NCBI GenBank assembly: GCA_043742785.1
Contig: JAYTXU010000002.1
Location: 9,707-73,706, forward strand
From: Candidatus Omnitrophota bacterium
GTDB taxonomy: Bacteria; Omnitrophota; Gorgyraeia; Zapsychrales; Fredricksoniimonadaceae
Direction of reading: 5' to 3'
DNA: 64,000 nt
Part shown: positions 1 through 49,197 of the stretch, piece by piece
Layout: every line of letters begins with the position of its first letter
Position numbering within the stretch: the first letter of the stretch is position 1
Notes under the pieces: generated by a model
Databases searched by the model: none
Seen by the model: the letters and a program-made list of their open reading frames with translations, nothing else
Told to the model about the DNA's origin: nothing
Program-made: the position numbers and the translations under genes

Positions 1-715
1 ATCATTAATTCTTTTTTCCCATCCTCTTGTGAAGTCCATCTTAGCAACAGCCGTATTAAACAATTCTTCCGTGATCTTTACTTCTTGGTATTTCATATCA
101 AAGCTATAACCTGACAAGAGATTAATCCGTTTCATCGGAAATTTAGCCGTTGGGTGGTCTACAATTTCGCCGCCTAATTCTTTAATATGCCCTGGGAATG
201 GGTCATTAGCCGTTAACATGCCCCTGATTTCTAGAACAATGTCTTGATATTTTGTATCGTGGTATTTTTCAAAAGCTTTTATGATATTGGTCAGTGTTTT
301 AGAAGAAACATGCCAATGAAACTCATCAATGCTTACCCTAAAATCTATCTTAATTGGTGATAATCCCGCCGGCACTCTTGCCTTAAGAGCGGTAACCAAT
401 TGATCTAAATATTCCTCTGTTCTCTGTTTGCTGGTCGCAAAGTAACCGCTGGTAGACAACGTTATCCTTTGAACCTTTGCTTCTCGGATAAATCTTAAAA
501 CAGTCCCCATTTCACTAACAGCTTCACCGCCTGTCACATCAAGGTTATAAACAGATCTTGCATTAATATACCTAAGCACTCTGTCCAGCTCTTCGAGAGA
601 GAGAATTTTGGCATTCTTTTTAATCGGATTGGCCCGCATCCAACAGAATTCACACTGAACAGGACAATAATCCGTTATTCCTACCAAGATATTATCGAAA
701 TATTCGACTTTGTGA
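1..715 (-). other. Radical-SAM module 2 of the giant ORF (paralog of module 1; continues toward the window edge)
   Basis: GITDYCPVQCEFCWMRANP carries the CX3CX2C cluster at 643-666. It is followed by YNLDVTGGEAVSEMGTVLRFIREAKVQRITLSTSGYFAT. It is collinear with module 1 over its whole visible length. The last visible residues are ...AKMDFTRGWEKRIND at position 1. Confidence 0.7.
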
Positions 716-3700
716 GGGGTGCTTAGAGGTTCCCAGCGAGTCGAACTATTATGATTCTCAATCAATTTGATTAATTCGTGATAAACAAAATCTTTTAACT
801 CGCCATCTTTAAGAAGATCCGACACTGCAAGAAAATGGTTATTCGCCGCAATAGACCGATCCCTTATATTGAGACGCTTGCGGGATGCAATATCTAAAAC
901 AGTGTTCAATCCAAACATCCTCAAAGCTACAACAAGAGGGTCACGTGTTAAACGGCTCTCCACTTCCTTAGAGAAATTGCTATTGTTTGCATTCCCCAGT
1001 TGAAAATCTTTAGCTAAATATTCATGAACAGAAACCGCACCGTCATAACTGATCGATATATTTGTGCTGTCTTCTTTGCCTTCTACCAATTTGGCATCTT
1101 TTTCCAGCCTCTTTTCATAACCTCTGTGGAATTTCTTTTGAGCCAATGTCGTATCTAACATCTCATCCATGAGTTTCACTTCACCATAACGAACGATGAA
1201 TTTGTATTCGGAAGGAAGAACAGCTTTCTTAACAGGATAATTTCCATGCTGCGCCTCTTCTATAATACTTCCACCTAATGATTGGATTATTCCTGGAATC
1301 GGGTCACTATCGATTAAGATGCCTTTAAGAATCAGGGAAATATCCTTATACTTCCCAGCCCAATGCTTTTCGAATATTTTAATAATACGAACAATGTTCT
1401 CGGCTGATACACGAGAATGAAATTCATCTGTGCTTAAAACAAAATCTACTTTTAAAGAATCTTTTCCATCTCCCCTTCTTTGAGTGAGAGCTGCCACTAT
1501 TTCATCCAGCTTTTTCTCTGTTTTATATTCATTAGTCGCGTAATAGCCACTGGTAAATATCGTAATGTGTTTAACCTCTGCCTCGCGGATAATCTTTACT
1601 ATCGACTCCATCGCATCAAGAGCTTCCCCACCTGACAATAAAAGGCGATACACGTGTTTTTCTTTAATAAAGGCAAGAATTCTATCGATCGCCTCAAAAT
1701 TTAATGCCGTGCTTTTTTTCTTATTAGGGTTAGCATGCATGAAACAAAATGAGCACTGTACCGGACAGAAATTCGTGAGGCCAATAGCAATACTGTCAAA
1801 CTGCTTGATCGACACAGGGGTCTTAAGAAGAATCCATGACGCCTGGCTGTTCTCTTGTGCTTTGACCAGATTCCAGTTTCTTCTGATATCATCCGGAGTC
1901 AATCGTTCAAACAAATCAAAAATCACTTCTCGGTATTGAGACGCGGTTGTTCCGATGGCAATTGTTATTGGAGAATCTCCTGTTTCTTTTTGAATTCTTC
2001 TAGAAAGATCAGCTATCATAAATTCACGTGTTCCTGCCTGGAACATCTCTTTGACCAATGGAACACGCAAAACTTGTCGGGAACCTTTTGCATCTTGAGC
2101 AAAAACGACCACATACTGCTGATGTTGAACATTTCTTGAGGCAGCTAATTGCTTGGCCTCTGTCCAGAACTGATCCCACATAGCGGTCAATGGTTCGGCC
2201 TTATAATTCCCTGAAGTAAAAATATTTTTTAACTGTGCTTCATCGGCACCATTAAATATGCTTGGAACAATTCTATTTTTTCGTCTTACGATAAAATGCC
2301 CTATCGCCAGTTGATCTAATCCTTCACCATAAAAATACGTGTTTAGAGCATCTTCTGGCGTCTCAACAATCGGGCCTCGCTTATTGAACGATGTGTTTAA
2401 GACTCCTGGAACACCCGTGCTCTTTCCTAATTCACCTAACAATAACCAATACAGAAGATTAGCTTCACGGGACACTGTTTGAGGACGGGTAGTTCCATCA
2501 TCTGAATGAACGCCTGCTCTTATAATGCTTTTCTTGTCTTCTTTCACAGGGAAAGCTATTGTCATAAAAGGAGCTCTGCTTACTCCCTCTAAGAATTCTA
2601 CCGCGTGTTCTTCTTGAATAGATAACGCTGAGGGACGCCATGGTTCACGACCTTTAATCTGGTTAACCTTGAGATTACCTTCTGGATCATTTAATCGATT
2701 TAAAATGCTTCTGTTCCCCAAGGCCCTCGGTCCTAATTCCGCACCACCCTGGAACCAAGCAACCGTCTTATCCTCCACGATAGCTTCTGCAACTTCTTTG
2801 ACCAATTGCTCATCACTTCCCATACGCTCATAATCAACACTCTCAACTAATCCAAAATTATTTAATACACTTTGAATCTCTTCATCAGAATATGTTTTTC
2901 CAAAGGATATTTTTTTAAGTTCATTTTGAACTTGAAGTCCGTACTCTTCATCGGCTACAGAAAGAGCGGCTCCAATGGCTGTCCCATCATCGGCTGGGTA
3001 CGCTGGTACAAATAATTTATCCGCGTCAACGATGCCGTTTTTAATAAGCTTGCCGTTGGCAGAAATGTTCAGAGCAAGACCTCCGCCCATCGCAACATAT
3101 TTCACGCCCTTTGTTTCCATATTCTCATTAAGGTAATAGGACACCATCTCGCTGATTACTTGTTCAACACGTTCCTGCATTACAAATGCCAAATGCGCCA
3201 TATTGCGATCATCCGGCGTTAAATCACGGCCCGTCTTGCCTTCCGGCATTGGCGGTACAATTCTGCCTAATCGCTGAATAAAACTTTCTGAGAATTTAAC
3301 CCCAGGAAGAGCGCTAATCTTTGTTAATTCATAATCATTTTGATTCATTTCAATCTGCTGGGTTTCTTTATTAAACCGTATCAATTCCTGCATCATTGCT
3401 CTTAATTGAGAAACAGTTTTCTCTTCTTCATTATCTCTTGGCGCTCCATAAGGAGCGTAACCCATCACCTTGCCTTCATCATTTCTGCGATAGCCTAAGT
3501 ACACGGTGATGATATGATAGAAATGCCCTAAGGAATGAGTAAATGGAGTCGTACGCGCAATCTTCTTTAATTTCCCCTCTTTAGCTAACCAAACGGTTGT
3601 TGATTCATCTTCTCCCTGACCATCGATGGAGATAACTACCGTGGGCTCTGTAAATCCGCTGGCATAATACGCTGCCGCTGCGTGGGCCTTATGATGCTTA

Positions 3701-6700
3701 ACAAAGGTGACTGGAGGAACATATTGTGTTCCATAACTAATCGCTAAATCTTTTAGAAATGCTTGGAATTTGTCTGTGTTATATCGTTGATACGATTCCT
3801 TAAAAGGAAGGCCATGTTTCTGACGATACTCAGAGTGCGGATCCTTACTGCCGGGAGTCTCCCGATAGAAGTTATAATCATAGCTGACTGCAATGTGATG
3901 AATATCTTCCCAGTTGATTCCGTAAGCTTTTAATAAATAACGAGTTGCTTCTTTGGGGAAATACGCTGTTGTGTGTTTATCAAGATTAAGCCGCTCTTCT
4001 TCAATAGCCCCGATTAAAACCCCGTCTTTAATTAAAGACGCCACTGAATCATGCCCCGCGCGAACGACACCTAGAATATAGACAGGTTTGTTCTGCTGCT
4101 TTATGTCATCACGAGAATCACGATGATAAATTTTTACAGCCACCTCAGAGGAAGTCACAGCCTGTTTAACATAAAATCTATTGATTAATCCAAGCCGTTC
4201 ATTGATCTCTTGTCCTTTTTTATGAATCTTGATCACCTGCGTTTCCGTGACAATTGTTACTACACCGTCTTTCCAATCAACTCTTTGAATCCCTTTGATC
4301 AAAGATAATATTTCTATCACTGTTTTCTTTTGAGCTAAATAAATTAAAATTCCTGCTACAGCCAATACTCCTAATCCTACCCATCCCCATTGAGCAATGG
4401 TTAAACCTAAAATTGTTTTAACAACCGGCAAGACAGTTGCCTTGGCTGTGATATTTACCGTTTGCGCTGAAGCAGACAGAGCAATGCTTAAAAGGCCTGT
4501 TGAAATCAGCGCTGCAAGACTTGTTCTGTGCATTAATCCTTTGCTAAGTCTTCCTCTGAATTTCATAATCCCATTAGCGCCACCTAATTCTCGTCTATTA
4601 AAAGTAATCCGATTGTTCTGTTTTTCTTTTTGTTTTGTTAAAACAAATCGCGTTCTACATTCTAAAGCGTACCCAATGTATAGTGGTCTTGCCTGCGGAT
4701 GATCATTTTGGAAAGATTCCAAATTCTCAATCACTTTAATATCAAACTGATCTCTTAACTGAGAAGCCACTCTATGTTCAAACATATTAAGAGTCCCTTG
4801 AGACATAAAGAACTTCTTATCTAAGACATAGGCATTGATGGCTGCTTCCTTACTGACTGCTCCAAAACCAAAAGATTTCATCAAAACATCTAAAAGCGTT
4901 AAATTTAAAATATCTTCGTGTGCTAAAACTGTTTCAGGGAAGGTGTCAAAATATAATTTTATCAATGGACGTAAAAACCCTTTGTTGCGCAACTCGCTGC
5001 TAATAGAAACTCCCCTTAGAGCATATTGACCATCCTCTAAACGAATACTATAAATAAACATCTCGTTTCCAAGATCTTGTCCGTTTTCATCAATAAGATT
5101 CAAATAAATTCGATTGTAGATCTTATTCTCTATTGGATAATCTCTTACTCCCTCAATACGGAATTGATGTCCATTGATCCTTACAGTCTGCGGTGTTGTA
5201 CTTTGTGTTGGAACCGTTATCGATTGAAGATTCGGAAAAACAACATTTTGTGAACGTACAAACATAATTAGTACTGCTACAAAAATTCCCACCATCGCTA
5301 ACACACCTAATCCTATCCATCCCCATTGAACGATGGTCAATCCAAGAATTATTTTGGTTGCGACTACAACTGCAGATTTACTTGCAATAACTGTTGTTTC
5401 TGCAGAAGCAGATCTAGCCAAACTTAAAATTCCAATAGAAAGTAATATCATCAACGTCGTCGAACTGCCCCCGTCAAAATTCTCTTTACCATTTTGTTTA
5501 ACAATCGCTGTCTTGCTCTTTTTCATCCAACCTAAAAAGACAGTGCCGATTCTTTTTAAGACGAACGCCCCAAGAATTGCAGCAACGATGCTGGCTAAAG
5601 CCACGGCTACCTTACGTGCTAAAACATAATCAAACACCAAAACAGGCTTCCTTGGGGCAGGCCTGCCTGCCGGTGAGGCAGGGTGAGATACAACGGGTTT
5701 AGGATTATTCTGTTTCGGTGTTAATAAAGAAGTTGCTACGCCAGCTCCCACATTTGTTGCCTGTGGTGATACACGGGAATCACCACGCTTATTACCTGGG
5801 GCAGGGTGAGTAGCTGGCGTTAAATTATTTGTTTGAGCACTGCGAATAGCATTAGTTGAAGTTTTAGATGTTGCGTTTGTCTTTAATGTGATGACCGTCT
5901 TAGCGGCAGCTGTGTTGGAAGACACATTAACAACAGCATTGGTTGCTGGGTGTAAATTAACACGCCCCTTGGAAACATCCCCGCTAACAAATTCTAACGT
6001 GTCCCCTATTTGGATATTATGCTCTTGTGCGTACCCACTGCTTACTTCCAGGACATAGACAGCGTTTTGTTGAGACTCATTTCTTAATTGTTTGCTTGGC
6101 TCATCCTTACTAGCATTCTTTGTGATATGAATAATTTGCATTTGCTTATTAAGCCAGAGAATATCGATATTAAATTTCATATTAGGCATCGCAAATGCTG
6201 AATTGTGTACGCCTAAAAATAACATCCCCGCATTAGCTGCTAAATTAATTCTGTTGCTTAAACCATTTTCTTTTTTCTTTTGACTAACAGCCGCTTCAAC
6301 TTTGAGTTCAGCTTTGACCTCTTTGCCTAATAATCCTCGAATGATACCTCTTCCTACATCGCCATCTTTTCTAAGATAATCCGTTGCTTGAAATTTCGTA
6401 TCCTTTCCGGCTACACTTTCTACTTGTTTAACGCTAGCGATCTTTGACATTTCTGCCAAGCCTTCTTCAATCTCACGGGAAGTGGTGCATGCTAACGTTT
6501 TTCTTTGTAATTCTTGTTCTGACTCAAGTCGACTAAATACTTCCGAAGTGCTCATTACAGGGTTTGTTTGTTTTATTGAGCGACGATAGTCATTCCAAAT
6601 TTGTTCTGCGGTTGATATCTTCCTGTCTTCTGACTCCCTCTCTCTTCCTAAAAGTTCCCCTGCGAATGAACGGTTTCCTCTGACTAATCTTTCTTCTTCA

Positions 6701-9700
6701 ACTCTCTTTTGTTCCGCTTGAAGAGTGTTGTAATAACTAAAGTCTTCGGCAAAACCTGTGTCGGTGGGGAATGGTTTGGTATCTAGTACAACTTCGTATG
6801 GAACCACGAAATTTAATTCTTTCCATTTCTTAATAAGAGCATCAACTCCTTCAGAATCTTTTTCTGTCTCCATACGCTCTTCTGCTGCAGGACTATTTCG
6901 TTTTATTAACTTTCGTACAATAGAAAGTGATAACAAACTTAGCGATAATCCCCCTACGATTAAACGCCAATTATCATTAATAAATTTAAAAACGCCAGCT
7001 GCCACATTTGTTGCCTGTGGTGATACACGGGAATCACCACGCTTATTACCTGGGGCAGGGGGATCAGCTGGCGTTAAATTATTTGTTTGAGCACTGCGAA
7101 CAGCATTAGTTGAAGTTTTAGATGTTGCGTTTGTCTTTACTGTGATGACCGTCTTAGCGGCAGCTGTGTTGGAAGACACATTAACAACAGCATTGGTTGC
7201 TGAAGAAACTTTATTTACAACTTGAGCAGGGACAATTTTGTTGAATAGTTCTTTTTGAATCGCATCTTTATTGATATATCCAATCCTAAGGACTGTGGCA
7301 ATCATCAAAGAAGCAATAACTACCTTAATCTTATTCTGAGCGATCATCTTTATTGTATTCTTAGCAACATGAATTCCTGCTAACACGCTAAAGACAACTA
7401 GTGCAACCGCTTGACTTATTGCTTCCACTCCGATGAAGGACATGACACGGTTAACATTGAGGCTATAAGCCCCTGGCTTGCTGTTAATCTTAGCTGGAGT
7501 ATATTCCATTTGAGTTGTAAGCCAATCAATCTTCTCAAGCTGCACAATGGTGGGATTGTTATTGAGAATGCGTTCAGCTTTCTCAATCTCCGCGATTAAA
7601 TGATCCACGTTACCGATTCTTTGAAGTTCAGCGACATATTTCTTCAAGTATTCGATGCGGTTACGTAAATCATACGCAAACGGACTATAATTTGTTGCTG
7701 TTTGTGACCTGCCAACAAGTTCATTAATTTCTTTTTGAGCAGGATAAACATACTTATTGTCTTTTACATATTCTGGCTTACCCGCAATGGCTGTATTACT
7801 TAAGACTGTCAAAGCTCGTAATACGGCTGGCAAATTAACACGTGTATACATCTTGCGTGAATGACCAGGATATACGTGGAACAATCCGATCATTTCAATT
7901 GCTTCGTCCTTCTTATTATCAGGAATATCTCCCCATTTCTCAACTTTAACACCTAAATCAGTAATTGTTTTCTGTAATCGATCTTCTGCATTACGAGAAA
8001 ATTTAAAAATAGATCCTAAATTATATTGTAGACGTTCAATCTGATCGATCACTCCCCAAGTAAAGGCAAATATAATATGTGCAAAATTCTTCCTCATATC
8101 TTTCGCCTTATTATCTGTGCGGGCTGGATTAAAGAAGAATGGAGCTGCAATCCCTGCTAAAGGCATTAATAAAGTGAAGGCCCATAAAATAGCCTTAGTT
8201 GGATGGAAACCAATTGCAATAAAGACTAAAAGACCAAAACCTGCAGCTGTTTGAATAGCAGGAGCGCTGCGCATATAAACTGTATTCCAATCCAATTCAC
8301 GTTCAATATTAGCTCCCTTACCACCTGTACTAATGAAACGACCTAGGCGATTGGCAGCTAGTTTCCCAATCGTTTCGTTATAAACAAAAATCATGTGTAC
8401 ATAATAAGTAAATAATCTTGGAAATCCTTTAATTGTCTTTGCGATGCCTCCAACGTATCCATTAGCACGGTCAAAAATATTATAGAGGAATAAACCGTTA
8501 CTGATTGCTTGTGATAAGGCCAATGATCCAACCCATAACACAACAGGTAATCCTGAGAATAAGTTCCAATCAAGAACTAAATAGAATGGTACTAGCCATT
8601 TAAGGTAGCGGATAATCGCTGGCTTCTTTAAATAGAAACCAAATCCATCCAACCATAAATTGTTTACTAAATATGGCCAATCAACATATGGAGACATCAT
8701 CATCTTTAAATTCGTACGACCCGTTATAGATTCTACAGAGTCATAAGACCACTTACGGATTGGGTTGCGAGCTGCCTGGAATTGATTCGGCCAACCCTTC
8801 TCATCTTTAACATAACCAGCATATCCAGAAATATAACCAACACGACGATAAGCCATTGTTGTCAAAGCATCTTCAGCTACATAAGAATCGGTAATACCTT
8901 CAGACCAACGCAAAGCAGAAACACGTTCAAAAAGTTTACCGTAGGTTGTAAGCCCGCCGAAGAGCATCTTGCCCCTCATGGAGTGATAATAAAATGCATT
9001 TTCAGAAGTTGGCATTACTGAACCTAAAGGACCAATATCTTGAGTAATGGTATGTTTTACCACTGGCGTTGAGGTCGCTAATCCTGGATTATAGAAATAT
9101 TCATTAATATGGGCCAAAATAAACTGACTGTCTGCTATGTTAGTACGATGATCCGCATCAATATTCAACGCCACTGGTCCAATAATATAAGGAAGTTCTG
9201 ATGTCTTTTGGTTCCATTTAGAACGATGATAGATTTCTTGTTCATCACCAAACCTAGGAAGATTAGTTCCTTCAAATAAAAGAGCTGGGAACACTCTTTG
9301 TTTATAAACAAGGTTAAATAAATTCTTACTTCCTTCTTCATTTCTTAATAAATTGTCGATCACTTCTAAAGAAAGGCCTTTTATAGATTGTCCATTAGCA
9401 TCGATCTTTGCAGTATTTGTATAATTAGTTTCAATAAGAACATCTACAATCTCTCTTAATTTATTATTTAATACTCCATTGAGCTTATGAACAGCTGATA
9501 AATTTCGATCCATAATACGGAATCTGCTATACGCCCATTCATTGTCCATTCCAAACTGTTCTGCAATAGCTTCATAAATAACGAACATTGCTTCCTGATG
9601 AGAACGAGCATTGTTATAGCCCGTTGGTAATTGACGATTAGCCCATTCTTTAATCTGTGGCCAAATACTCCAAATTTCTATTCCCTCTGGCTTATGCATA

Positions 9701-12700
9701 GGTTTCTTAATCATCTTAAGCAATTCACTTCTTTCATTTGAATTTTCTGCTGTTAAGTGTCTTACCATCAACAAGAAAGCTTCTGTCTTATCCTTAGCCA
9801 ACATACCTAAACGATGCGTAAACTGAACTGTTTCTCCTGGAAGATCCGTTCCTAAAAGACCTACATTATTAAACCAGTAATCTTCAGTCGCACCATTAAT
9901 TAAAACTGTCATAGGAATGGTTTCATCAGCACTGGCTGGCTCTACGCCTTTATCCAAACGATAATTCCCATTGATATATTCAATAATACGAACCATTCCT
10001 GTTCGATCATCATTCTTAGCTCTAATTCCATTAACAATCACTGGCTTAGCTAATGCTTTAACCAACGCTTTGAGTTCAGCACGTAAAGCATTTACAGTTG
10101 TTTCTGAAGTATTAATTGTTTCGCTTAATTCTCTTAAACGAACAACTAGGTCAGTTCTATTGTCAATGGCCTTCCCTTGAGCAAAATAGTTATACCCATT
10201 ATCATTAACCATCTGTCCAACAATCCTGCTGAAAAATGCTAAGCGAACTTGACCTTGAGTCGCAAAACGATTAGCTCCGGTTGTTGGTGTTTTATCAGTA
10301 AATAATTTCATCAACCGATTTACTGCTTGTCTAGCGTTGCCTTTATTTTTAAGCTCATACACATTATTGACCCAGTTGTATCCGAAGCTAGCCATACCCA
10401 TAAACAAATAATTAGCGGCATAGAAGCTTAATCTCCAGGTTTCAATAAAGATGAGGGCGGGGATAATACGAAGCGGCCATTGTGCCCAAGCTGGAACTGC
10501 AAAGATAACCATGGCGCCAGATGGTAAAATCATTGACCAAGGAGTGATCAAAGCTCCTATCATGCTTAACGCTTGTAAGCCATAGAACATGATTAACCGT
10601 GCGCGAAGAGCTTTGAATGCAGATTTCTTTTCCTTCTCAAGATCTACAATCTTGGTTTGATCCTTTTCATCCTTTATTTGTGCTTCAATATCAGCAATAT
10701 CTGCTTCTAGCTTTTTACGTAATGGATTTTTAACTAAAGCACCTGCGATGAGATTGAAGATCGAAGCTCCTGCTGCCATAATGACTGCCCATGGCATGGT
10801 CATAAAGTTGGTTACCCCAACACCCTTTAGTAAAAGCCCTGCAGCTGGGAAGGCTAACCAAACAAATAAGGCAGTTACAGAAGCAATTAAAACATAATGG
10901 TAAGCCCTTCTCATCAAATCACGAGCTGTTTGATTATACGGACCACCTTTTGAGAAGATCGCATGACGCCAATTCTTGCTTTTTAATAAAGTCCATAAGG
11001 CTATTGCATTAATCTTCCACATCGCTAAACGTGTTTTGACAACTGGCATGCCAATTGCCTGATCAACGGTGTTAACAAAGGCAAGCATCAAAGGTTTAAA
11101 TTCACGTAAGAAGTCTTGAATAGCAGCTTCACGCTGGACAAAAGGAACATCTAATAACGTTTGCATCTCGAAAAGCTTTTGTTCAATTCTACGACGAAGA
11201 GGATCTATGTTGGTCATTACTTCTGCAGGAATTGCCCCTCCTGGCATATTCGCTGTAGCATCTTTTTGACCTAATAGATAACGGAAGGTATCGTTATAAA
11301 TTTCTTCAGTGATAATTTCATGGAAATAAGCTACCTTGCCTTTAGGATCACGGTTATCTTCAATTCTCTTTTGAATTTCATTAAATAGAAGAACATGGAA
11401 GACTTGTTTAAAAATTTTGACCTTATTAAGGAAGTTTGCCCCAACAAAGCTATTATTAGTCGTCAACGCAGGATAAGCATACTTAGCCCAGAGATACTCT
11501 TCTGCTCTTCCTTGTCCTGCTAATCCAAAGAGCGCGCGTTGGAAGATGACTTGCATAACAAATAACTTCTCAACAGAAACTAATGCGCTGCGGACTTGAC
11601 GTTGCATATCTGGTCCTTTGCGTAAATCATCCCAAGCATAAACAACCATGCTGCTCTTGATATCAAAATCATTAAAGCTAAAAAGCTCTGGTAATTGACG
11701 AGCATTGAAGATATTAGCAAAGAAGGTTTGCTTTAAAGCTTCGATCTGATTACCAAAGGCATTGTCAAAACCAGTTTCTGTAATGATCTTATTCGCAATA
11801 TTTTTAACATTACCCTGGAAGTCTTTGTGATCACGCATCTTGGCATATAGTTGCACCAAGATCGCTTGAGTTGCACGACGCTTATCAAAGGTATTCACAA
11901 GTTTCTTCACATATAAAGAACCAATCACCTGTTGCACGATTTCAATACTCATGAAGGCGTTCAACATTGTTTCAAAAGACTTAACTGCATTCTTTTCAGC
12001 ATCGTTAATACCGTACAAAGCTGTAAGTTCTTTCATAAATTCAACAATCGTTGCAGTTCTTATTAAACGACCTAAATCTTCTTGGGTAAATGTTTCTTTG
12101 TTAGCTGCATAACGAAATTTCTTAGCATTTTTCATAGCCACATAAAAACGTGCCTTAGTAAACAACGCGCGCAAAGAATGTCCTGATAGAATATGTAAGT
12201 TCTTTAATTCATTCTCAATACGATTCTTAAATTCTTCGTTATTTTTATAAGCTCCATTCATTTGACGATTTCGAACAATAGCCATTGATTGAGCAGGAGT
12301 AAAGCCCATTGATTCAAATGTCTGAACACCCTCATAATTAGCATCAACTTTGGAACGATTGCGCAATTGATAAAAGGTAAAACCAATTCCTGGGATAATA
12401 AACCCAATCATTAAAAGGAGTGTTGCCATTCCTCCGACAAACCACCAAGCGCCAATGCTGATTCTATTTAGCACTCCCATGACAGTGGTTCCTTCTTTAC
12501 CTTCATAAGTAGAAGAAGCAGGATTTGCGATATTGATCTTTACTTCTCGCCCATTTTTCTCAATTAAAGAAATGATATCGTTGTTCTTCATATCTGTAAT
12601 TTTTTGTATTCCCCAAGAAATTGGACTGTTACGGAAAAGATCTTCCATGTTAAATACTGACGGGTATGGAGCCGTGTTACGATTAAATCTATCTGCACTC

Positions 12701-15700
12701 CAAACCACTTGACCATTTTTAATAAGAATCTTACGGTCATCATTGATGCTGTGCGTAGCTACTTCAAAACCGCTTTGGGTAGCATGTTTTTCTGTCACTA
12801 ATTGCCAAATATCTCCGGACTTTTCATCAGCCCAGACCTTATTAATCATGTTACGGTAGCTGTATTCCGTTCCATCAACCATGCGATTAACAAAGACTGG
12901 ATAACTATTAAGATAATAAACGCGCAAGGTCATTGTGTTGTATTCGCGTTGTTCAAAATAAACACCCGTTGCAAGAGAGTATCTAGTGTCTACGTTATTA
13001 ACCTTTTCCATCCCTTCTTCAAGACCCTTATAAATAGCTTCCGAAGTTTTATTGTCTACAGAAGTTAACGCAGTGTCTCTGAGAACATTCTTGCCTCCTA
13101 ATAAGGTGCTAATATTTTGGTTAATAACCATTTGTCCTGGAGTCAACTCCAATTGAGAAGGCATCCACCACTTATTAATACTGGTTTCACCCGAAGGACC
13201 TTGAAGGGCAATGTCGCGGTTAAGAGGATCTTTAGGCATCAAATAACGATGCTGTGTTCCTGTGGCAAAATTCGTAAATACCCCGTTAAGATTAATATAG
13301 GGGACTTCAAGAAGCTCTGGTAACGGGGAGTCTTTATCTAAGCCGAATATTGTAAATTTATTCTGTACTCCATTCACAGCTTGTCCAAGCGTGATTGTTT
13401 TTCCTTCTTTCAAAGTGAAGGCATCCCCCACAGAAGTTGCCTTGATACCTTCTGTCGCTTTATCATCTTTCCAAGCCGTGTTAATAATCACAATTGGATT
13501 GCTGTTAGGACGAATAATTTCTACTACGGTACGGCCAAAGATATCTCCTTTAACGCGGTAACTTACAGACACCATCCCATATTCACGACTTGCTGTTGAT
13601 TTTTCAAGAGTTGCTTTTCCATTCTTAATGCCCATTTGTTGAGCAATAAATTCCACAGCCTTATTTGCTTTTAAAACCATCTCTTGATAAAGAACATTGT
13701 CTGAAACAACCGTGGCAATGCCTTTATTTAAATCTTCTGCTGAAGCATCTATTGTCACAGCTGATTTTTGATGCTCAAATTTCACAAAAACATTTGTTTT
13801 GTTTTCCAAAACAGCATGATAGGCTTCAAAGGTTCCTTGATTCTCATTCTTTAATAACACCTGGTAAAGATTAGTAACAGGACCAGGAATCTGTTCAATA
13901 TTTCCAATTTCACGAGAATGTTTTGTATCGATAATATACATTTTCTTGCTAAAGGTTCCGTTGGTCTCTTTACGGCCTGCTACAAAAAGATCTGAAACAC
14001 TAACGCCAGGAATTATTACAGGTAAATTCTTGAGATTAAAATTCATTTTTACAGCATACCCAACAATATCTTTTCCGATTTCATAATTATTGTTTGAGGC
14101 TGTGAAGTTATAGATTTCTCTTACCTCTTCTTCTGAATAACCAATAATCGCACTTCCTTTGCTAGCAACTCCGTTGACCATTTCCGTAGGATAAAATTCT
14201 ACATAAACAAGCCCAATACCTTTCTTCTCTTTACCTTCAATTGGAACAACAACAGCAAATGCTTTTTCAAATGCTCCCGTTGGAAGACGTCGTTCAATAC
14301 GTTGAACTTTTTGTCCTTTAACTTCAAATGATTCTCCAACCTTATGGGCGATCGCCAATAAGGTGTTTTCATTACGCTCTGTGTTAAATGGATAAATATT
14401 CTCTGTTCCATCGTTATTGACAACTCCCACCTGTACGTCATCTTGAATAAAATAAACACGTTCAATAGTCTCTGTTTTGCTCCCGTTGGTACGAATTTTG
14501 ATCACTTCGAAATTCTTATTGTTGCGAATAAATTCTTGATTAGCTGGAATCATCAACTCTGCCATGGTTAAAAATTCGCTGGTCTTGGCTTCTGTGTCAT
14601 TCAACATATAATTATTAGCTAAGAAATCTTTTACAGAATTGTATGCAACAGGCTGCGCCTTAACAGGAATGCGAGTTGTTCCTTTTTCTAATACAACTTG
14701 TTGATCATATTCTTCTCCAACAATAGGCTTGATATGACGGATACTTGTGCGGTTCTGATTCATTAAATCAATGAATTCTTTTGCGCTGTAAATTTTGATT
14801 TTGTTTGTTGATAAGTCTGAAGCTTCAACTCCGCCGGCAATCAGGGTTTCTAACTGAACCTTACGTTTTTCAAGCGCTTGTTTACCTGCATCCAAGATAG
14901 CCACCACGCGTCCAGCTTGAACCTTAATCATCATATTCTCTGTGATTGCGATCTTTTTCGTCTGGCCATTCTCATTACCGATCTCAATAGCCTGACCCAC
15001 ATACTTTTTATCTTCCACAAATTTAGCAGGAGCAAATTCATTAGCTTTAGCCGTTTCTATGTTCCCTGATGGAACAGAGATAGAAAGCCCTTGTCCTTCA
15101 TAGAATGGAAGAATTCTGCTTAAACGTTCATTCTCTGCGGCTGCCTTTGTAATCCATTCCTTCATTGTCTTCACAGATGGAGCAAAAATTCCAACGCTTT
15201 TACCGTCTACAGGCATTTGGATAAGAGCATTTCCAGGAACTTTGATTTCACGGCCGCCAACATTGAATACAATTCCCTTATCTGTTTTCACAGCGCTGAT
15301 AACAACAAGATCTGCATTTCTTAAATAACGGGCAACCTTTAAATGGCTTGTTGAATCAATCGCTTCTGGTTTGTTATTACTTAAATAGAAGATGGTGCCC
15401 GCCTTAGCTTGAGCTGCTGTATCCAAATCTTCTAACAAGTTGGAAGTTTCAAAGAGATATCCTGGAACCTTAGGAGTTAATTGATCCTGTAAAGCTTCGT
15501 TCATAGCCTTTGTAGCGGTCACTGGACCGTTATTATTTCTGACCTTATAATATTCCTTGACCACAGTACGAGATTCCCCAAACATAGAATTATAAGCATC
15601 CGCTGTACGGGTGAATTCATCTTTAGCATAATCGACAAAGACATTGCCAATTTTATGGGCGATTTCCATTTTAGTCGCTTTGACGGCATGAATTTCAGCC

Positions 15701-18700
15701 GCTGGGATATATCTAATGCCTGTTGTATCTTTCTCAACTAAGGCTAAGTATCTAGCATCGGTAATGATCTGAACAATCTCTCCGGATACAGGATGACGAA
15801 GCATGCCTAAAATTTCTTTGCTGTGTTCAATCGCAAATCGTTCATTCAATAAAGCGATTCTGGAAGGAAGAGCTTTGACTAATGGCTTGCTTAAATCAAC
15901 ATTGCCGTTGCTGGAGGCTGCGAAATACATCTTCTTCGACACAAAGGTTGGTGAGGTAAAGACATAGCGGACTTGAGCTTTTCCGTTGCCTAAATCTTTA
16001 ACCATGAACCCGCGAACCTTGCCCTTATAGACTATCTTGTCTTGATCAACACTGCCTTTGGCTTTATCAAAACCATGTCGATTGTTTTGGACATACGGCG
16101 TTGTTACGTCAACCTCATCAAACATCTCGATATAGGCAATATTCTTGGCTTCTTCAGGTTTGATGCTGGCAGCATATTCAAAGCCTGCTTGATACAATCC
16201 AATATCAAATTGTTTGCCTAAATTCTCGAATGGGAAGCGTTTATTAGTGTCTCCTAAAAGACTCCATACAGGTTGTAAGAAACCGCCTGTTAATCGATTT
16301 AAACCGCTTGGGATGGCGCGTAAATCATCAAAGATACCAACGCTATAAGCATTCTTCTTTTGTAATTCATTATTCTGATCAGCTACTTCAATAGGGATTC
16401 TATTGATTAACAAGGTGCTAATAGGATATTCCAACCAGAATTTATCTGTGGAGATTAACTTGGTTTGATATCTATTTTCATGTAAGACGGCATAGTTGCG
16501 CAATTCCAAAGCGATATCAACCAAGCGGGCAGGACCCATAAATTTATTTAAAGCTGTTTGCGCGCCGAACTGGCTGAAGCCTTGGATGATTTGGAACGCT
16601 TCTAATCCTGACTTAAATGGATGATCAAAATTAACAATAAATGTCGCTGTCTGATTTGGTGTTCCTATAGGAGCAGACATCATTGGGAAATTGTAATTAT
16701 TAACAATGCCTAAGTTTACTGGCAAACCAGGACGAGTTAATACTGTCTTGGCTAATTTTCTCTGGTCATTTAACTGAGAATCAATAAAGGCTTTCCTGCT
16801 ATCATCATCTGTTTTAATTCCTAGCGCCTCTCCAGCTGCCTTTTTCTCTAACGCCTTGCGGGTATCTTCTTCATACTTGGCGATTTCAGTTTCTAATTTC
16901 TTTGAACCTTCTTTATTGTCAGCAATGGTCTTTTTAATCTCTGCCATCTTTCCTGGGATGCCATGGCTTAAAGCATCGTTGACGACCTTTAATTCATCCT
17001 CAGGGGTAAGCTTAGAATCAACACTCTTAGCATTAGCCAACACAAACCCTTTAATATCCACATTGCCATCTTTGTCAACAAACGTTGCGACAGGAACACT
17101 GGAAGCAGTTAAGGCAACACTCTTATTTCTGATTGTTCCAAAGATGGCACGGCGGGCATTGTTAAGAACGTTTTGATAATCATTCTTAAATTCTTTAGCA
17201 TCAATGCTAGCCACATATCCTGCATCGACCAACATCACAGCAGGATTTTGAACATTTAATTTTAAATTAGCCAATACGCTATTCGTTCTAATCGCTTCTG
17301 GCATATCCGCTTCATTGATGATCTTGCTGCCTGTAGCCATATACAAGCCATTGGTGCTGCTTCCAACAATCACCATTGGCTCATCGGTCATTCCTTCTTC
17401 CATGGCCTCAATAGAGGTGATGCTAAATACTGGCTTACCAGCATTTAACGTAGCACCCTTATTGAGGCGTTCTGTAATACTGTGAACTGTGCTTGTTGAG
17501 GCAGGTACGGTTTGAACACTTTGACTCTTAGGGAAGTCAGTAGCGTTCACATTGCTTGGGGCTGCGGCTGAAGAAGCAGCAGTGTTTACTTCAGGAGCCA
17601 AGGTGGCATCCACATTATTAGTTGAGGCTGTCTGTGCTGTAGCGCGGGCTTCTGGCTGTGTCTGGATGTTTAAGGATCCCGCTGAAGCTGTTGAGATCTT
17701 CTTGGTCGAGAAGTTGCCAAGATTCGTTGAGCCCGTTGCGTTTGGAGATGTTACCGTTGTGTTCGATGAGGTAGATGTGAATCCTGTTTCCTTGGTCCCT
17801 TGCTGTGGCAATTGAAGCGTTGATGTCGTGAACTTTAACGAAGTGTTGGATCCGAAACGTGTTGCTAACCATGGTGCACCTCCGTTGGTTTGTTGCTTAA
17901 CTGTTAATAATTGTTGATTGGTTACTAAACTACGAATAGATCTGCCATCACCAATGTTGAGCGCAGTGGTGTTGGTAGCGCCCTGGGGTAGAGCGCGTGG
18001 TGCATGGGTATTGGAATAACGGGTGGACAAACGAACTCCACTGCCAGAATCAGTAGGTTTTAGAACCAGTGATTTAGCGGTGGTTGCAAAAGCTTTCTGC
18101 TCCTTCGAATTAGCTCCTGGGATGGAACTATCTGCGGGCAGACTATGGGAACCATTGATATTGCTTGAATATCTAAACTTACCTTTATAAGTGAGAGAAC
18201 TTGCATTTCTTATACTACTTGCTTTTTGCGTACGAACAGAATCAGTGCTTGGAACGTTTCTTCTTGTTCCTCTCACACTTCCTGCACCTATAGAACCTTC
18301 TGTATATTTATCAGCGTCTACGTCGCCACCCTTGGACAAACTTCTCACACCTTGAGCGCTTGTATCCTTTAGAGAGCTTTCGCTACCCTTAGGACTAGAC
18401 ACGCGAATGTCATTTTTAGTACTTCTAGCTACGGCAATGGCATCGCCACTACCAGAACGGATCCTGCGTGATTCACCAGCATTGCTTCTTTCTACGGTAC
18501 TGCCAGCTACAACTACGGTGTTGCTTTCGCTTATATTGACACTTGTTACTTGTGCTTCAGGTGCGATGATGCCACCATTTGTTAACTTGAACTCACTTCT
18601 TACTTCTGTCCTACTTGCTACCTTACTGCTTACTGCCTTGGTACTTGATGCACTACCATTTACTCTTTGTTTCTCTTGGGCAGAGCTTGCGCTAAACCCA

Positions 18701-21700
18701 GTTTTTGCTGTACTGTCAACAACTGTACTATTTCCTGCAACTGCATTACTACGAACACTTATGCTCTTTTCCTCGTCTCCTTCATTTCGTCTGTCTGATG
18801 ACTTGAGGAAAGTCACGACAGAAGCAGTACGACCGCCGTCGCCGCGGCTCGCTTGTAATTCAGTCAAAGATACGGCCTTAGCGATCTCCAAATTATTAGA
18901 ACCTGCTTTACTTAAAGTTGTCTCTATGAAAGGCCTTGGAATTTCCAAAGCAATCGATGGATGAACAGGTGGCGGTGGAGAAGCCATTAAAGGTGTTGTT
19001 GGAGTGACCGGCGGCATCACAGGTGTTGGCGGTGCCACTGGTGTTGTTGGCGCAACCGGTGCCGGTGTTGTTGGTGCTACAGGCCCTGCTGTTGGAGCCA
19101 CAGGCCCGCCTGCCGGCGAGGCAGGAGCTGGAGTCGTTGGTGCTGTTGGTCCAGCCGTTGGCGTTGTTGGCGCTGGCGTACTGCCCCCATTGCCGCCTGG
19201 TGTACTTGGTCCATTAGCACTAGGACCAGGAACCGTTGGAACAGGAGAGGTGGCCAATGGAGCAGGCTGTTTATCAAGCGCTGCCAATTCTTCTAAGGTC
19301 GCCTTCTTTTCTTCTGGTGATAAATTTGAATTCTGAACATATTTCCTGTACTCTGCCTTTTCTTGCGGAGACTTCTTATCCCAAGCTTCTCTTAAAATAG
19401 CTCTTTTCTGGGCTACAACCTCTTGAGCTTCAGCAACAGCTTCATTGGCAGCCCTAACTTCTTGAGCTGTCTGCTGTTGAAGCTTTTGCTGCATAGCGCT
19501 AACTTCAGATCCCAATTGAGCCACAACGGCTGGCGGAGGAATGCTGTCTTTCGAATCAAATCTTGCATCTTGACCTTTAGCTAATACTGCTGAAACAAAT
19601 AGCAATAATGCCGCAACCAAGGACGTGCTCTTATTCATTTTAGAATACAAACTTGTTACTAAGATCGTCGCTGGGATCGCTATCAATCCCGCTGTTAACC
19701 CAAGAGGAATGCCTACGGCCAAGGCAGCCATCCCGCTCAACCAAGGATCGATGGTCACCCAAGATCCCACCTTAACTTGTGTGAAGTCTGCAAGTGGCCA
19801 GCCCTTAATGGCAATATGCTTGATTTCTAGATGAATCCAGCCGGGTTTCTTTTGTGTGGAATTATTCGTATCGGTCTCTTCAGCTTTAGGACTTTCTGTA
19901 ATCTTAGCTGCTAAGCGCTCAATCGTTTCCTTGCGAGGTTCAACCTTTGCCACAGACGTTTCAACAATAGCTTCTGCTTCCGCAGGGAATGGATCGGTAT
20001 CACTTGTTTGTTTAATCGCATCTACGGCCTTGCGTTCCTCTTCATTCAATTCTTCTGCGGCCTTACGGCTTTCTAAGATGGCTGAAATTTCCTTGACCAA
20101 ATCTCTTCTGGCCCCTTGAGGGAAGCTGGCGTATTGATTAAACAGATTCTCTAAGGCAATCATCACCGGCTCGCCATTGGGAGTGACAAAGAGCGGGCTC
20201 TTCTTAAACTCTTCTGGTGTTTCGGCAAGAAGCTTGCGGACAACCTGAGCTCTCTTTAAATTTTCAATGGATGGCAAGGTTCCCGCCGGTAAATTACTTG
20301 GACCAAAAACAAAGGACAGCAGAGCATCGATTCTCTGCTCGATGGCAGCACGCAGCACCCATTGCTTTCTCTTCTGTGTTTTTTCCTGTTCCATTTGCTC
20401 TGCCGTTTTTTCGCTGTAAGCCAAATGTTTAACACCATACTTATTTTGAATATATCCTAAAGCAATAGCGGCTACACGGCTAGCCACTTCACCCTCAAGA
20501 GGTTTACCATCGATAAAGATAATCGATGCAATCTGATCACCAGCTTCGCTTCCCGTAGCTTTTCCGTTTAAGGATTTGGCATGTTCAATAAAATCAAGAG
20601 CTTCTCTCTCTAAGCTTTCATCACTTAAAATCATCCTCTTAATAAATAAATTCGTCGACAATCCTTCAATTTGCCCTGAACGCGTCTTGTCGCTGTCGCC
20701 CACGGCCTTGGCTATCTGTCCTAAATATTGCGCTGTTGTGCTTAATCCTAAAGCCTTCAGCGCTTCATAAGGACTGCTTGGATTAATTTGTGTCAGAACT
20801 TGAACGGTAATAGAAGCAATTCCTTTACGCGTCTTGGCTATAAAATCATTGAACGCTCTCTGTTGTGGAGAAAACTTAAATAATCTTAAAACAGGATTGG
20901 TGTTGCCCTTGCTGTTACCTGCTTTTTGTAAAGCAACTAAAGCTTCTCTAGCTGACAAAAGACCTTTAAGAGCTTCTAAAATTTCTAGTTTATTGTTAGC
21001 CTTAGCAAGATTGGCAATCACCTGGATATCACTTAAGAAAGATACAGGATCATTAGAAACATCAAGAATAGCCTGTAACAACTCGTCGCTGTTCTTGGCC
21101 AATCCTTGGGTCATCAAAAGAATAGCCAAAGATAATTTATCAGCGCTATTAACGCCAGCTTCAAAGAGTTTATCAGCTGCTTCAAAAGTATTAGCTACCC
21201 CTAAGAATTTAAGGAACTCCTCTTTGCGGGATAATAATTGTTCGTTAAGCGCCTTAGCAATGCCTGCGATCGTTAAGCCCGTTAAGTTAACCTTATTGTC
21301 ACTATCAACAAAGTCGCCAGCAATCGGCATATCGATCGCCACAGCAATCTTGTCAGCCTCTTGACCTCCGGCCTTAAGCACCAATTGATTGGCGGATTGA
21401 ATTTCCTGACGGGCATTATGTCCCACGAAGAAGGATGGAAATAATCCTTGAGCAATACGTCCTAAGGAATCAAAGAGGCGTTCATAATAATTAGTTAATT
21501 CCTCCTTAGCGTTTAAATTGATGGTGTTTCTCTGTGGATCAGCGAGAACAGGATGCTGCATCACATCCGCCAAGGTTTCACTTCCTTTGGCATCAATGCC
21601 CTGGTATTGAACACGGCGCAAGCTCTCTTGAGTTTGGACTAAAGCGTTCTTTGTAGCCTTCTCAAGACCATCACTTAACTTACCGCCGACGCCAAGACCA

Positions 21701-24700
21701 ATAATATCATTAAGGATATTTTGAACAGAATTTAAGGAAGCAATTGCTTCAGTTTGTAGGCGCTCACTTGGAGAGAGCGCAAAGGCTAGGAGTTTCTCTA
21801 TAAATAAATTGTATCCGCCGGCCGACATCTTCTTGCGGATGGAAGCCATAATCTCCTTGTCTCCTGGTGAATTCTCATAGAGAGACAACATTTCTAAAAT
21901 CTGCATCAGCACATTGTGATACAAGGTATCTGCGATGACGTGATGAACCACTTGATCACGATGAGTTAAGTTATTGAGCTCAACCCAGCTTAATAAATCC
22001 TGCTCGCTAAAGTTTGAACCACCTGAAGCTGGACGGGTATTGATCCAAGAACGGATATCCTGATTCAAACCATTTGAACCCGCTCGTTCATTAACTAGAC
22101 TAACAATTTGCTCGGCATACTGATTCATCATTAAGCCGTCTTTGAGATTTCCATAGGTCAAGCGCAAGCCGTTGTTTGCTTCACCTAAACGGTTACGCCC
22201 TAAGGCTTGTTCTAAAACATCCTTATTCCAGAAAATAGCATCGGGAACATGATTGACCACATCGCCTACAAAGTTCTTACCTTGAGAAGCAAACGGTAAA
22301 GTGGCGATGATCCATTTACTATCCGCCGCCTTTGTGCCCTGTAAGAAATTAAGAATATCCGCTGTTTCACGATTGGTACCGTCTAAGATAATCGCTCTGC
22401 GCTCATATTGAGGATCATTATGTGCAGCTTTAACTTCCGCCAGCGTAATCGTGCGAGGAGCCAAATAGATATTGCCGCCACTTCCCGCTAATCTTGCCTT
22501 AAGCTTGGTTTCAAATTGATCTAGATTCCCGCGCATGATCATCTGCACCAAGGCACCACCAGTTGTTGCTCCACTCAATAATTGATCGATCACAGAATCG
22601 ATGACAGCGTCGATATCAGCAAAATTATTACTAAAGGTTACTCTTCCGCTTTGTAGATCATCTTTTAAATTATTCGGATTAAATCTCTTATAGGTAAACT
22701 CGGGGAACATCATCTTTAAAACTTCTTCCGATGCACCCGGCGTTGCTGTAAACCCGTGGATATTGACACCCGTCAAGATACGGGCCAAGGCGTATTGATC
22801 TAAGGTTTCAGAAGAAATATTTAAGTTGTCCACATCCAATTCTGGTCCCTGTGGATGGGTGTTTTTATAGTCGATCGTAAAGGCTAAGAGATACGGTAGA
22901 TTGTTAAATATCTTATTTTCCGGCTCTCCCTTTTCGTTCACTGGCATAGGTGCAAACTTATTCTGCTTTTGGTCATAGGCAACAGCTAGGCGTTTGCCTT
23001 TTTCTACCAAGTACAATAAGGTGTTATAGAAGGCCACCTGTCCATTAAAGTCGCTCGCGGCAACCTTAAAGGCATCATAGGTTTCCTGTGGGATATCCAA
23101 ATGCCCTTGCATAGGGGCTTCTGGATTGGGCGATTGGGTGTAGAGTACATAGGCTTCGCCTGCCAGCGGATTCTTCTGCATTTGAATATATTCTTCTCTG
23201 GAAGAAATCACCTTGATCTTGGCAACCCCTGTTCCTGCTAAAGCTTCTTTAATCTGAGGCAAGTACTCTTCGACCTTAGCTTTGACTTCCTTAGCGAAGG
23301 TGTTGTCCTTGAGCGGCCCCGATTGAGACACAATGAAATTATAGAGAGAAACGAAATTGTGAATTTCATCAACCACCGCTTCCTGCAGGCTGCCTACGGC
23401 ATCGCGCATATCCTTCTTATTCTCAGGTGTGGAGGTAATAGTTAAGAACCCGCGCTGGCCAACGGAGGTGACCTTGATTAAATTATTATTCTTCAAATCA
23501 TTAATAATCATGCGTTCAATATCGGCTGGCTGAGAGATGCCTAATTGAGTGGCGTATTCATTAGGCAGGCCGGCTAACAAATCTTGTTGTGCCTTACCTA
23601 ATTTTTCCATATTCACCAATGGACTCGTCGGCAGCTCACTTTGAGGCTTGCCTGTTAATTCGCTGACCACTAATTTGACCAAATCCTGGAAGGATAGATT
23701 GATCTCTGCCTGAACTTCATCGACAAAACGATCAACGTCGCCGCTGTCATTGAGCAACCACATGGTGTTTTTCCCTTGAGCTAGGTAGGTAGCGGCTAAG
23801 ATTACTTGAGAAAGCGTCTTACCCGACCCCGTGGCGGCGGCGATGTTTTGATTGTCTCTGTAGGCCGTTTCAAACATTTCCCACTGTCTATTGAAATAAT
23901 CATCCCCTTTTTTCACCTTAGAAGAAGCCTTCACCTTTTCATAAACAATCGCTTTTAATTGATCCAATTGAATCTGACCAAATAGATTAGCCGTAGTTGG
24001 TGCGGTTGTAATCATCGCCTTGCTTACACCTGACAATTGATTGCCTAATTCAGCCTGGCGATCATTAGCCCACTGTTCCATTTGGTTTAATACAGACTTG
24101 GCTCCTCTTTCTGGCGCATTCGGTAATCCTTGGGCTGTTAGGGCCGTATTAATTTCTCTGTTAAGGCCGTATGACTCAGGGAATCTTCTAGCGTTATCGA
24201 TGGCTGTCTTGAATTCTTCTAGAACATAATCTGTTTTCTTGGATTTTATCCTGCTCTTGATTAAGGTATACAAAACTCCTGCAGCAGCTAAAACAGCTTC
24301 CTGATTTTCCGGCGTTGTCATGGCATAGTCTCTAAGCTTATCGGGACCCTCCTTGAAACCAGCGGTACTTTGATCGCCATTCGCATCTAATAGAACCCCC
24401 ATCTTTTTAGCTCTAATCCTTCTATCCTCAAGACTTTCAACTGGAGGATTAGGGACAGTTCCATCGACATCTTCTGTTACCATCGCATTGTTAGAGAAAT
24501 CGCTCTTGGCATCATTAGCAATGTTTCTATCACCCCGAGCTATGGCTGTTGCCTGCATGACTTCTCTGAAGCTTAAATTGAAAGGCATTGCCACTGGAAG
24601 AGCGGGGACAATTCCTTGATTAACAGGAATTTGTACGGGTTCTTCTGGAGCATTTAATTGTATTGGAACGTTTGTTGTCCCTGATGATACTTCTTCGCCG

Positions 24701-46971: not shown

Positions 46972-47046
46972 TTTTTATGGTCAAACTTTTTATCGCCTTC
47001 TGCTTGCCAGCAGATAATTCTCGACGATGCCGCCCCGTATAAACAG

Positions 47047-47074
47047 AGTATAACATATGATTCATAAATGACAA
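47047..47074 (-). promoter_or_regulatory. Candidate sigma70-type promoter for the giant gene (TTGTCA-16 nt-TGT-TATACT, extended -10)
   Basis: The minus-strand sequence reads TTGTCA tttatgaatcatatgt TATACT, with TG one base upstream of the -10. It sits about 75 nt upstream of the ATG at 46971, inside an AT-rich ~650-bp intergenic region. This is a sequence match only. Confidence 0.35.
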
Positions 47075-47573: not shown

Positions 47574-47605
47574 TTGATTAAATAACCATACTATGGTATG
47601 GTTAT
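47574..47605 (+). promoter_or_regulatory. Candidate brnTA promoter/operator: TTGATT-17 nt-TATGGT overlapped by a nested inverted repeat
   Basis: ATAACCATA (47582-47590) pairs with TATGGTTAT (47597-47605), and an inner palindrome CCATA-C-TATGG lies between them. GAGGG then precedes the ATG at 47618. RHH antitoxins commonly autoregulate through such palindromes. Confidence 0.35.
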
Positions 47606-47617
47606 AGCGAGGGTCAG

Positions 47618-48166: not shown

Positions 48167-48173
48167 TTAATTC

Positions 48174-49151: not shown

Positions 49152-49197
49152 AATCAGAACCTGTGGCTAATTTATCCAGATGTATTCATTTGTATGC

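Follow-up and report, generated by a model that had tools for sequence, protein, structure and literature searches.

The C-terminal end of a giant membrane protein from a Candidatus Omnitrophota bacterium is probably a captured enzyme pathway. We analyzed a 64,000-nucleotide (nt) stretch of this genome (assembly GCA_043742785.1, contig JAYTXU010000002.1, forward-strand positions 9,707 to 73,706; hereafter “the window”), in which a single minus-strand gene encodes a class III carbamoyltransferase followed, in the same frame, by two radical S-adenosylmethionine (SAM) modules. We consider it probable that these C-terminal ~1,440 residues are a three-enzyme tailoring cassette, which forms a conserved unit in Omnitrophota-type genomes and is tethered here to the cytoplasmic face of the membrane. 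All features of the giant gene given below lie on the minus strand, with positions counted along the window.

The frame that joins these enzymes is exceptional. From 46974 to 1, we found 15,658 codons without TAA, TAG, or TGA, which bears out the initial annotation in that no stop separates the enzymes; the likely ATG is at 46971, and the frame runs off the window at base 1. For comparison, a random frame at 39% GC would be expected to meet a stop about every 16 codons (calculated from the base composition), and no other frame in the window is comparable. We thus delimit the giant protein gene as 1..46974, from the stop-free frame, its domain content, and ~20 hydrophobic segments, with a 3′ end beyond the window. 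Stop-codon reassignment was rejected as an explanation, given that the giant frame is devoid of any stop and that neighboring genes have normal lengths under translation table 11, including all those upstream (49846-63986), whose sizes are normal when read with the standard code. Two plus-strand open reading frames (ORFs; 1565-1939 and 1855-2139) were disregarded as antisense to conserved coding sequence.

The first enzyme of the cassette is a carbamoyltransferase of the TobZ/NodU/CmcH type, as had been claimed for 2285-4090. Its core (2281..4077), made of a Kae1-like and a YrdC-like domain, matched both Pfam families expected for this class, i.e., Carbam_trans_N (PF02543; 4077..2962, expect value (E) 1.4e-41, 143.5 bits vs a cut-off of 24) and Carbam_trans_C (PF16861; 2790..2281, E 1e-48, 165.5 bits vs a cut-off of 27), as well as the sequence of TobZ (3ven, E 2e-67). 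The predicted fold of the core was likewise closest to TobZ by Foldseek (template-modelling score (TM-score) 0.86, 31% identity), followed by GdmN, NovN, and VtdB. On one side, the core is preceded by a beta-rich N-terminal accessory domain of ~75 residues (4081..4308), common to stand-alone homologues and modelled by AlphaFold2 (AF2) with a predicted local distance difference test (pLDDT) score of 85-96; on the other, it is followed by a C-terminal accessory alpha/beta domain of ~140 residues (1864..2280, pLDDT ~75-90). Overall, the AF2 model of the whole unit reached a pLDDT of 90 and a predicted TM-score (pTM) of 0.92. The motifs HHKAH, DGQGE, ADDGTAIGAA, GPRALGNRS, KGREPWRP, TRPQTV, and NTSFN of the core align to TobZ, and every invariant or nearly invariant column of a 40-sequence family alignment is present in the window core. 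As in TobZ, these motifs would provide the metal ligands (His/His/Asp/Asp) and the carbamoyl-phosphate/ATP site. With all family-invariant residues and TobZ-aligned motifs in place, the carbamoyltransferase looks active. A narrower assignment as a NodU orthologue was rejected: the NF041651 equivalog model gave 123.9 bits vs a cut-off of 1000, which makes the enzyme a family member only.

The limits of this unit are sharp. Homology to three relatives (the proteins P0001 and P0122 and the protein of locus L003) begins nine residues past the last transmembrane helix, at residue 14,223 (window 4308), and the homology of the unit to its relatives stops at residue 15,037 (window 1864). In particular, P0001, the product of a free-standing gene at locus L002, ends with ...AIRNWNIVG where the window reads ...DIRRNWNLVKAQ, i.e., exactly at the end of the C-terminal domain.

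The remainder of the cassette consists of two paralogous radical-SAM modules, again in agreement with the initial annotation. Module 1 (757..1854) spans 365 residues, with a partial TIM-barrel core and a cysteine-free helical C-terminal domain, and carries its CX3CX2C motif (CPVQCSFC) at 1744..1767; module 2 (1..756), with CPVQCEFC at 643..666, is collinear with the second module of the homologues P0121 and P0122, and 252 of its ~365 residues lie in the window, the window edge cutting off ~110. Both motif positions are exactly those first proposed, and they are the only two CX3CX2C motifs in the entire 15,658-residue product. Pfam Radical_SAM/Fer4_12 models matched two stretches of the giant frame (E 2e-20; 73.9 bits vs a cut-off of 29.5 for PF04055), and the two modules align with each other over 257 residues at 44% identity (E 7e-79), with a repeat period of 365 residues. 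An alignment of 17 family members displays as invariants the three motif cysteines (C35/C39/C42), a GGE motif (G80/G81/E82), a TSG-motif threonine, and a DPxP proline, with an S.DE.H motif nearly invariant. The CX3CX2C and GGE motifs together with the partial TIM-barrel place the modules in the radical-SAM superfamily, and the beta/alpha core of the AF2 model of module 1 (pLDDT 89) matches solved radical-SAM enzymes. All three enzymes of the cassette thus look intact, with their catalytic motifs retained.

The family checks proposed initially thus recovered both carbamoyltransferase domains and Radical_SAM, but not SPASM. Each module has exactly three cysteines, all within CX3CX2C, and no other cysteine is conserved in the 17 family members, so that a SPASM/twitch auxiliary cluster is absent; with no SPASM Pfam match at E ≤ 0.01 either, a SPASM/twitch maturase was rejected. 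The best named match was EpeE/YydG, both in a profile search against PDB sequences (E 3e-11, reaching into the C-terminal helices) and by fold, for which Foldseek aligned the module model to EpeE over ~360 columns (E 1e-10, TM-scores 0.65/0.73), the next match being MoaA (0.39-0.44). However, the modules scored only 42.3 and 45.4 bits against the YydG/EpeE model TIGR04078 (cut-off 300), and membership in that family was rejected. The modules are distant relatives of EpeE rather than members of its family, and their reaction is not inferable from that of EpeE.

This module family is rare, and it is as yet unnamed. An exhaustive HMMER profile search of 1.84 billion cluster representatives returned only 12 matches at E ≤ 1e-30, a number that rose to 89 with the threshold relaxed to E ≤ 1e-10. 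Word-seeded homologue searches found none at E ≤ 0.001 with module 1 as the query and none at E ≤ 1e-20 with the 17-sequence alignment, the latter probably being crowded by generic radical-SAM candidates. The four closest radical-SAM loci (36-53% identity) were all from Omnitrophota metagenome-assembled genomes (MAGs). Next came eight relatives at 25-33% identity (L007-L012, L024, and L029), encoded in ORFs of ~480-585 residues by host-associated or episymbiotic lineages: Legionellaceae, Chlamydiae, Rhabdochlamydia, Paracaedibacteraceae, and Paceibacterota and Peribacteria MAGs. These eight share CPVGC.FCFF, GGGEP, and S(V/L/F/I)D..H (LSVDEEH in several) and have no additional cysteine position common to all; the two compared with NCBIfam (L007 and L008) scored ≤26 bits, and no named model fits. 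One module copy also occurs near the N-terminus of two long multi-domain proteins, P0131 (5,119 amino acids, aa) and P0132 (2,671 aa), which contain repeated low-complexity linkers (e.g., GSSEGRGMRDEGR in P0131). The radical-SAM module is reused in several giant-type architectures.

The same enzymes are encoded as separate, adjacent genes in related genomes, a possibility that had been put forward as a check on the window and that turned out positive at two loci. At L002 (JGI Ga0506529_0002795), three genes of 845, 1008, and 784 aa follow one another with gaps of 12 and 20 nt. The first (P0001) corresponds to the carbamoyltransferase unit (74% identity over a 640-residue query, 69% over the 815-residue unit), the second displays a weak similarity to purine phosphoribosyltransferases (PRTases), and the third comprises both radical-SAM modules. 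At L022 (JGI20166J26741_11875251), a 1,814-aa gene combines the carbamoyltransferase and PRTase-like parts and is followed by a 1,084-aa gene in which a segment read as histidine-phosphatase-like (RHGES motif) precedes the two modules. The first two genes of L002 are in frame (12536-12551), with a single stop between them and an ATG 12 nt later; the loss of that one stop would fuse them, as in the 1,814-aa gene of L022. Fusions shorter than the giant exist as well. An Omnitrophota MAG (L003, JAZDHG010000098.1) encodes a 2,509-aa protein in which the carbamoyltransferase unit, 72% identical to that of the window, is combined with a single module, P0122 (2,383 aa) fuses the unit to both modules, and P0124 is another fusion.

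Across related contigs, the carbamoyltransferase unit is 60-72% identical over its 815 residues and the radical-SAM modules, in the same order, are 46-56% identical; named carbamoyltransferase relatives belong to “Candidatus Omnitrophica”. Module 1 of the window is 48-56% identical to first modules elsewhere vs 44% to its own neighbor; the duplication is therefore old, and both copies have been kept. Unlike the window, the versions at L002, L022, and L003 are separate genes or proteins of 2.5 thousand amino acids (kaa), either free of transmembrane segments or with an N-terminal anchor only, and their enzymes are separated or preceded by an additional segment of PRTase-like, P-loop-like, or histidine-phosphatase type. 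Taken together, these comparisons suggest that the arrangement in the window is the gene fusion of a pre-existing pathway and not a domain invention.

We propose that the cassette would operate as follows. By analogy with TobZ and GdmN, the carbamoyltransferase would use its YrdC-like domain to convert ATP and carbamoyl phosphate into carbamoyl-AMP and its Kae1-like domain to pass the carbamoyl group to an acceptor, the mechanism described for class III enzymes (PMC9633730). Each of the two anciently duplicated radical-SAM modules would use one [4Fe-4S] cluster and a 5′-deoxyadenosyl radical for a hydrogen-abstraction step. In the lineage of the window, the stops between separate genes would have been lost and the unit joined in frame behind a transmembrane hairpin, so that the pathway would now be tethered to the cytoplasmic membrane face within a multi-enzyme giant. 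There, the three enzymes would act on one substrate at the inner membrane face.

This orientation is consistent with the architecture of the giant protein. Its hydrophobic segments form clusters, of which one is N-terminal, one lies around residue 9,100, and one spans residues 11,500-14,214. Toward the cassette, a transmembrane segment (residues 13,785-13,806) is followed by a K/R-rich stretch and then by two hairpins. The first (residues 13835-13905, window 5472..5260) consists of a signal-peptide-like helix, a short loop, and a transmembrane helix; in the last (residues 14152-14214, window 4333..4521), a loop of 17 residues connects a signal-peptide-like helix to a second helix, with MKFRGRLSKGLMHR as the flank before and QKK as the flank after. 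The two hairpins are paralogous (57% aa and 78% DNA identity) and have basic flanks on each. The last hairpin would tether the cassette to the membrane; by the positive-inside rule, and as a hairpin brings the chain back to its starting side, residues 13,807 onward, cassette included, should be cytoplasmic. The initial annotation had likewise placed the enzymes in the cytoplasm, and we find this likely from the K/R-rich hairpin flanks, the need for ATP, carbamoyl phosphate, SAM, and reductant, and the soluble homologues, since stand-alone cassette proteins have no transmembrane segment. Each hairpin is also preceded by a Gly-Gly and a basic stretch (FDGG|SS and RRELGG|ANGIMKFRGRL). The hairpins may be the N-termini of once-separate proteins, or else possible double-glycine cleavage sites for a C39 peptidase.

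Scanned in overlapping pieces, most of the 15.6-kaa product had no Pfam match, apart from a Peptidase_C39 domain just after the N-terminal hydrophobic segment (46083..45853), a DEAD/ResIII ATPase domain (34275..33853, residues ~4234-4374, E 2e-8), and a DUF192 (6303..5989). The ATPase domain lies in the middle of a tract of ~8,000 residues without hydrophobic segments, which suggests that this tract is cytoplasmic rather than extracellular. The earlier impression of extracellular upstream tracts is thus doubtful for this stretch, and we found no domain support for describing the protein as adhesin-like.

As to the substrate, we would hazard, at low confidence, a polar sugar, sugar-phosphate, or nucleotide-type small molecule and not a peptide. 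Close carbamoyltransferase relatives are fused to ribulose-phosphate 3-epimerase (PF00834), ROK (PF00480), and polyprenyl-phosphate sugar transferase (PF02397) domains, APH and methyltransferase domains adjoin the radical-SAM module in relatives, and P0123 contains a segment read as histidine-phosphatase-like. Together with the PRTase-like genes, these epimerase, ROK, sugar-transferase, histidine-phosphatase, and kinase-type partners weakly point to a sugar-phosphate or nucleotide-type molecule, and the sugar-tailoring genes upstream in the window (see below) point likewise to a polar molecule of that kind.

Several observations weigh against the captured cassette as we read it. The window holds no substrate clue within itself, and the radical-SAM modules have as their best characterized relative an enzyme whose substrate is a peptide and not a sugar. 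The partner-domain matches are weak, all of them below curated cut-offs, and the PRTase-like partner is absent from the giant protein of the window: neither the 1,008-aa protein of L002 nor the N-terminal regions of P0122 and L003 have a homologue anywhere in it. The topology was derived by hand from the positive-inside rule. Finally, the 3′ end of the giant gene lies outside the window, and the segment between the main part of the giant and the cassette (window ~7170 to 4308) is represented by the assembly of the window alone and crosses a 211-nt repeat with 97% identity between copies.

A second reading, in which the cassette would tailor a polymer made by an upstream glucan-synthase-like module at the site of its export, was proposed in the initial annotation and appears unlikely. 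The cassette is indeed tethered beside a cluster of transmembrane segments, and in the relative P0005 the carbamoyltransferase and a polyprenyl-phosphate sugar transferase domain are parts of one protein; radical-SAM and sugar-metabolism domains also co-occur in catalogued giants. Upstream of the giant gene, moreover, a sugar-nucleotide tailoring gene set (49846-58210, minus strand) encodes a nucleoside-diphosphate-sugar C-methyltransferase (Methyltransf_13/14), an AAA_14 ATPase, a GT2 glycosyltransferase, a DegT/DnrJ/EryC1 aminotransferase, a 211-aa unknown protein, and two B12-binding radical-SAM proteins. However, the label of a synthase at 7290-12470 was rejected for want of sequence evidence: over 7291-12471, searches of NCBIfam, of PDB sequences, and of Pfam with E as high as 5 gave no significant match, and nothing like a glycan synthase. 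In addition, free cassette genes encode soluble proteins without transmembrane segments and adjoin unrelated genes (sulfate transporter, EamA, M20 peptidase), so that coupling to an exporter is not intrinsic to the cassette and an export-linked assembly line is not needed to explain it.

Alternatively, the EpeE-like modules might mature a peptide, or the giant itself, in the manner of ribosomally synthesized and post-translationally modified peptides, by C-alpha hydrogen abstraction and epimerization, with the C39 domain cleaving at Gly-Gly and the carbamoyltransferase capping a side chain. We regard this as rather improbable. EpeE/YydG is the top match by NCBIfam, PDB profile, and fold, a Peptidase_C39 domain sits near the N-terminus of the giant, and FDGG and RRELGG occur just upstream of the two hairpins; yet the bit scores fall far under the YydG cut-off. 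The hallmarks of EpeE, moreover, are a T-SPASM domain with an auxiliary [4Fe-4S] cluster and a hydrogen-atom donor, Cys223 (PMC13012085); the modules have no equivalent of the cluster cysteines or of this donor, and no cysteine beyond those of CX3CX2C is conserved in the 17 family members. No precursor peptide gene was seen, GG dipeptides are frequent by chance, and relatives pair the cassette with domains of nucleotide or sugar-phosphate type.

We also considered whether the fusion could be an artefact, the modules being in truth separate genes, or another locus, joined by an assembly mis-join or by stops lost in error. An independent short-read assembly (Logan, SRR23617268) yielded a contig that is 100% identical to window 39846-56155, with a gene call of 13,266 residues up to the contig end, which falls by calculation near window 7170. 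This contig backs the giant reading frame, while the link to the cassette is not independently covered. By the same calculation, the contig ends inside one copy of the direct repeat noted above (5738-5948 and 6992-7202), which makes the copy number of the repeat an assembly risk. At L002, too, only very short gaps lie between the homologous genes, the first two sharing a frame split by a single stop. On the other hand, sequencing errors break frames and do not create 47 kb of open frame, and this frame is kept across three successive junctions. The two repeat copies lie 1,254 nt apart, a distance divisible by three that keeps the frame, and they are nested in a duplication of 179 residues that is older (residues 13171-13328 and 13577-13746, 50% identity) and overlaps the DUF192. 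The composition is uniform, and the same modules are independently fused in L003 and P0122. Overall, an artefactual junction seems quite improbable. Least credible, and very improbable in our view, is that the giant gene represents an operon fused into a “polyprotein”, with signal-peptide-like hairpins and the Gly-Gly sites before them marking the limits of its units, the cassette acting in cis on the giant or being freed by its own C39 domain, which, if true, would amount to a self-maturing giant protein with new radical-SAM chemistry.

The remaining genes of the window lie upstream of the giant gene. Beyond the tailoring set, two T2SS-F genes (58238-60004) are followed by an unannotated 1,185-aa ORF (60429-63986). 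Between the giant gene and the tailoring set, the plus strand (~47000-49800; L001 6341-8538) carries small genes matching ParE_toxin, RHH_5 (weakly), and BrnT_toxin by Pfam, along with a 325-aa and an 88-aa gene without Pfam match.

Set against known systems, each part of the cassette resembles a characterized enzyme and departs from it. Like TobZ, GdmN, NovN, and VtdB, the carbamoyltransferase has a Kae1-like plus YrdC-like core, His/Asp metal ligands, and the GPRALG.RS, K.RE.WRP, and NTSFN motifs; unlike that class, it has two added domains, the N-terminal beta domain of ~75 residues and the C-terminal one of ~140 residues, which occur only in an Omnitrophota-centered subgroup, and its fusion partners are radical-SAM modules and a membrane protein. 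The modules resemble EpeE (PDB 8ai1-8ai6) in whole-module fold, in the helical C-terminal region, and in the S.DE.H motif (ISYDEYH in EpeE). However, they are only 16-17% identical to EpeE, have neither auxiliary-cluster cysteines nor a Cys223-type donor, and are found in tandem, either next to a carbamoyltransferase or fused with it; neither a precursor peptide nor a dedicated ABC/peptidase operon like that of epe accompanies them.

The giant as a whole belongs to a described group. Giant multi-enzyme membrane proteins have been reported from Omnitrophota (West-Roberts et al. 2023, 10.1101/2023.11.21.568195; 2026 preprint, 10.64898/2026.06.07.730766), and the 2026 catalogue of 916 giants includes a class of “multi-enzyme metabolic clusters”, with radical SAM (PF04055) in 90 giants and nearly half of the catalogue read as inner-membrane-anchored with cytoplasmic enzyme content (10.64898/2026.06.07.730766). 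The protein of the window resembles these giants in its >10 kaa in one frame, N-terminal hydrophobic anchor with C39, DEAD-type ATPase, many transmembrane helices, mostly unannotated sequence, nearby T2SS genes, and embedded cytoplasm-type enzymes; unlike in the giants described, the Pfam match is to DEAD/ResIII and not to the SecA_DEAD model. Giants that are anchored in the membrane and laden with enzymes, radical-SAM domains among them, are therefore already known, and the fusion in the window is real but not unprecedented. Nor is anything overturned here, cytoplasmic enzymes in such giants, radical-SAM ones included, having been catalogued. A carbamoyltransferase is mentioned neither in the main text of the 2023 or 2026 paper nor in one 2026 supplementary file. 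What is new, and done in neither giant paper, is the tracing of a giant segment to a conserved stand-alone gene cassette: a carbamoyltransferase and double radical-SAM unit can be followed from separate genes, via a 2.5-kaa fusion, to the terminus of a >15.6-kaa giant, along with an unnamed EpeE-related radical-SAM subfamily that lacks an auxiliary cluster and is always linked to a TobZ-like carbamoyltransferase. The stand-alone genes could be expressed and assayed for their chemistry, and the cassette provides a concrete example of Omnitrophota giant-gene growth, on which the idea of the giant protein as a fused operon becomes testable with a small, well-folded piece.

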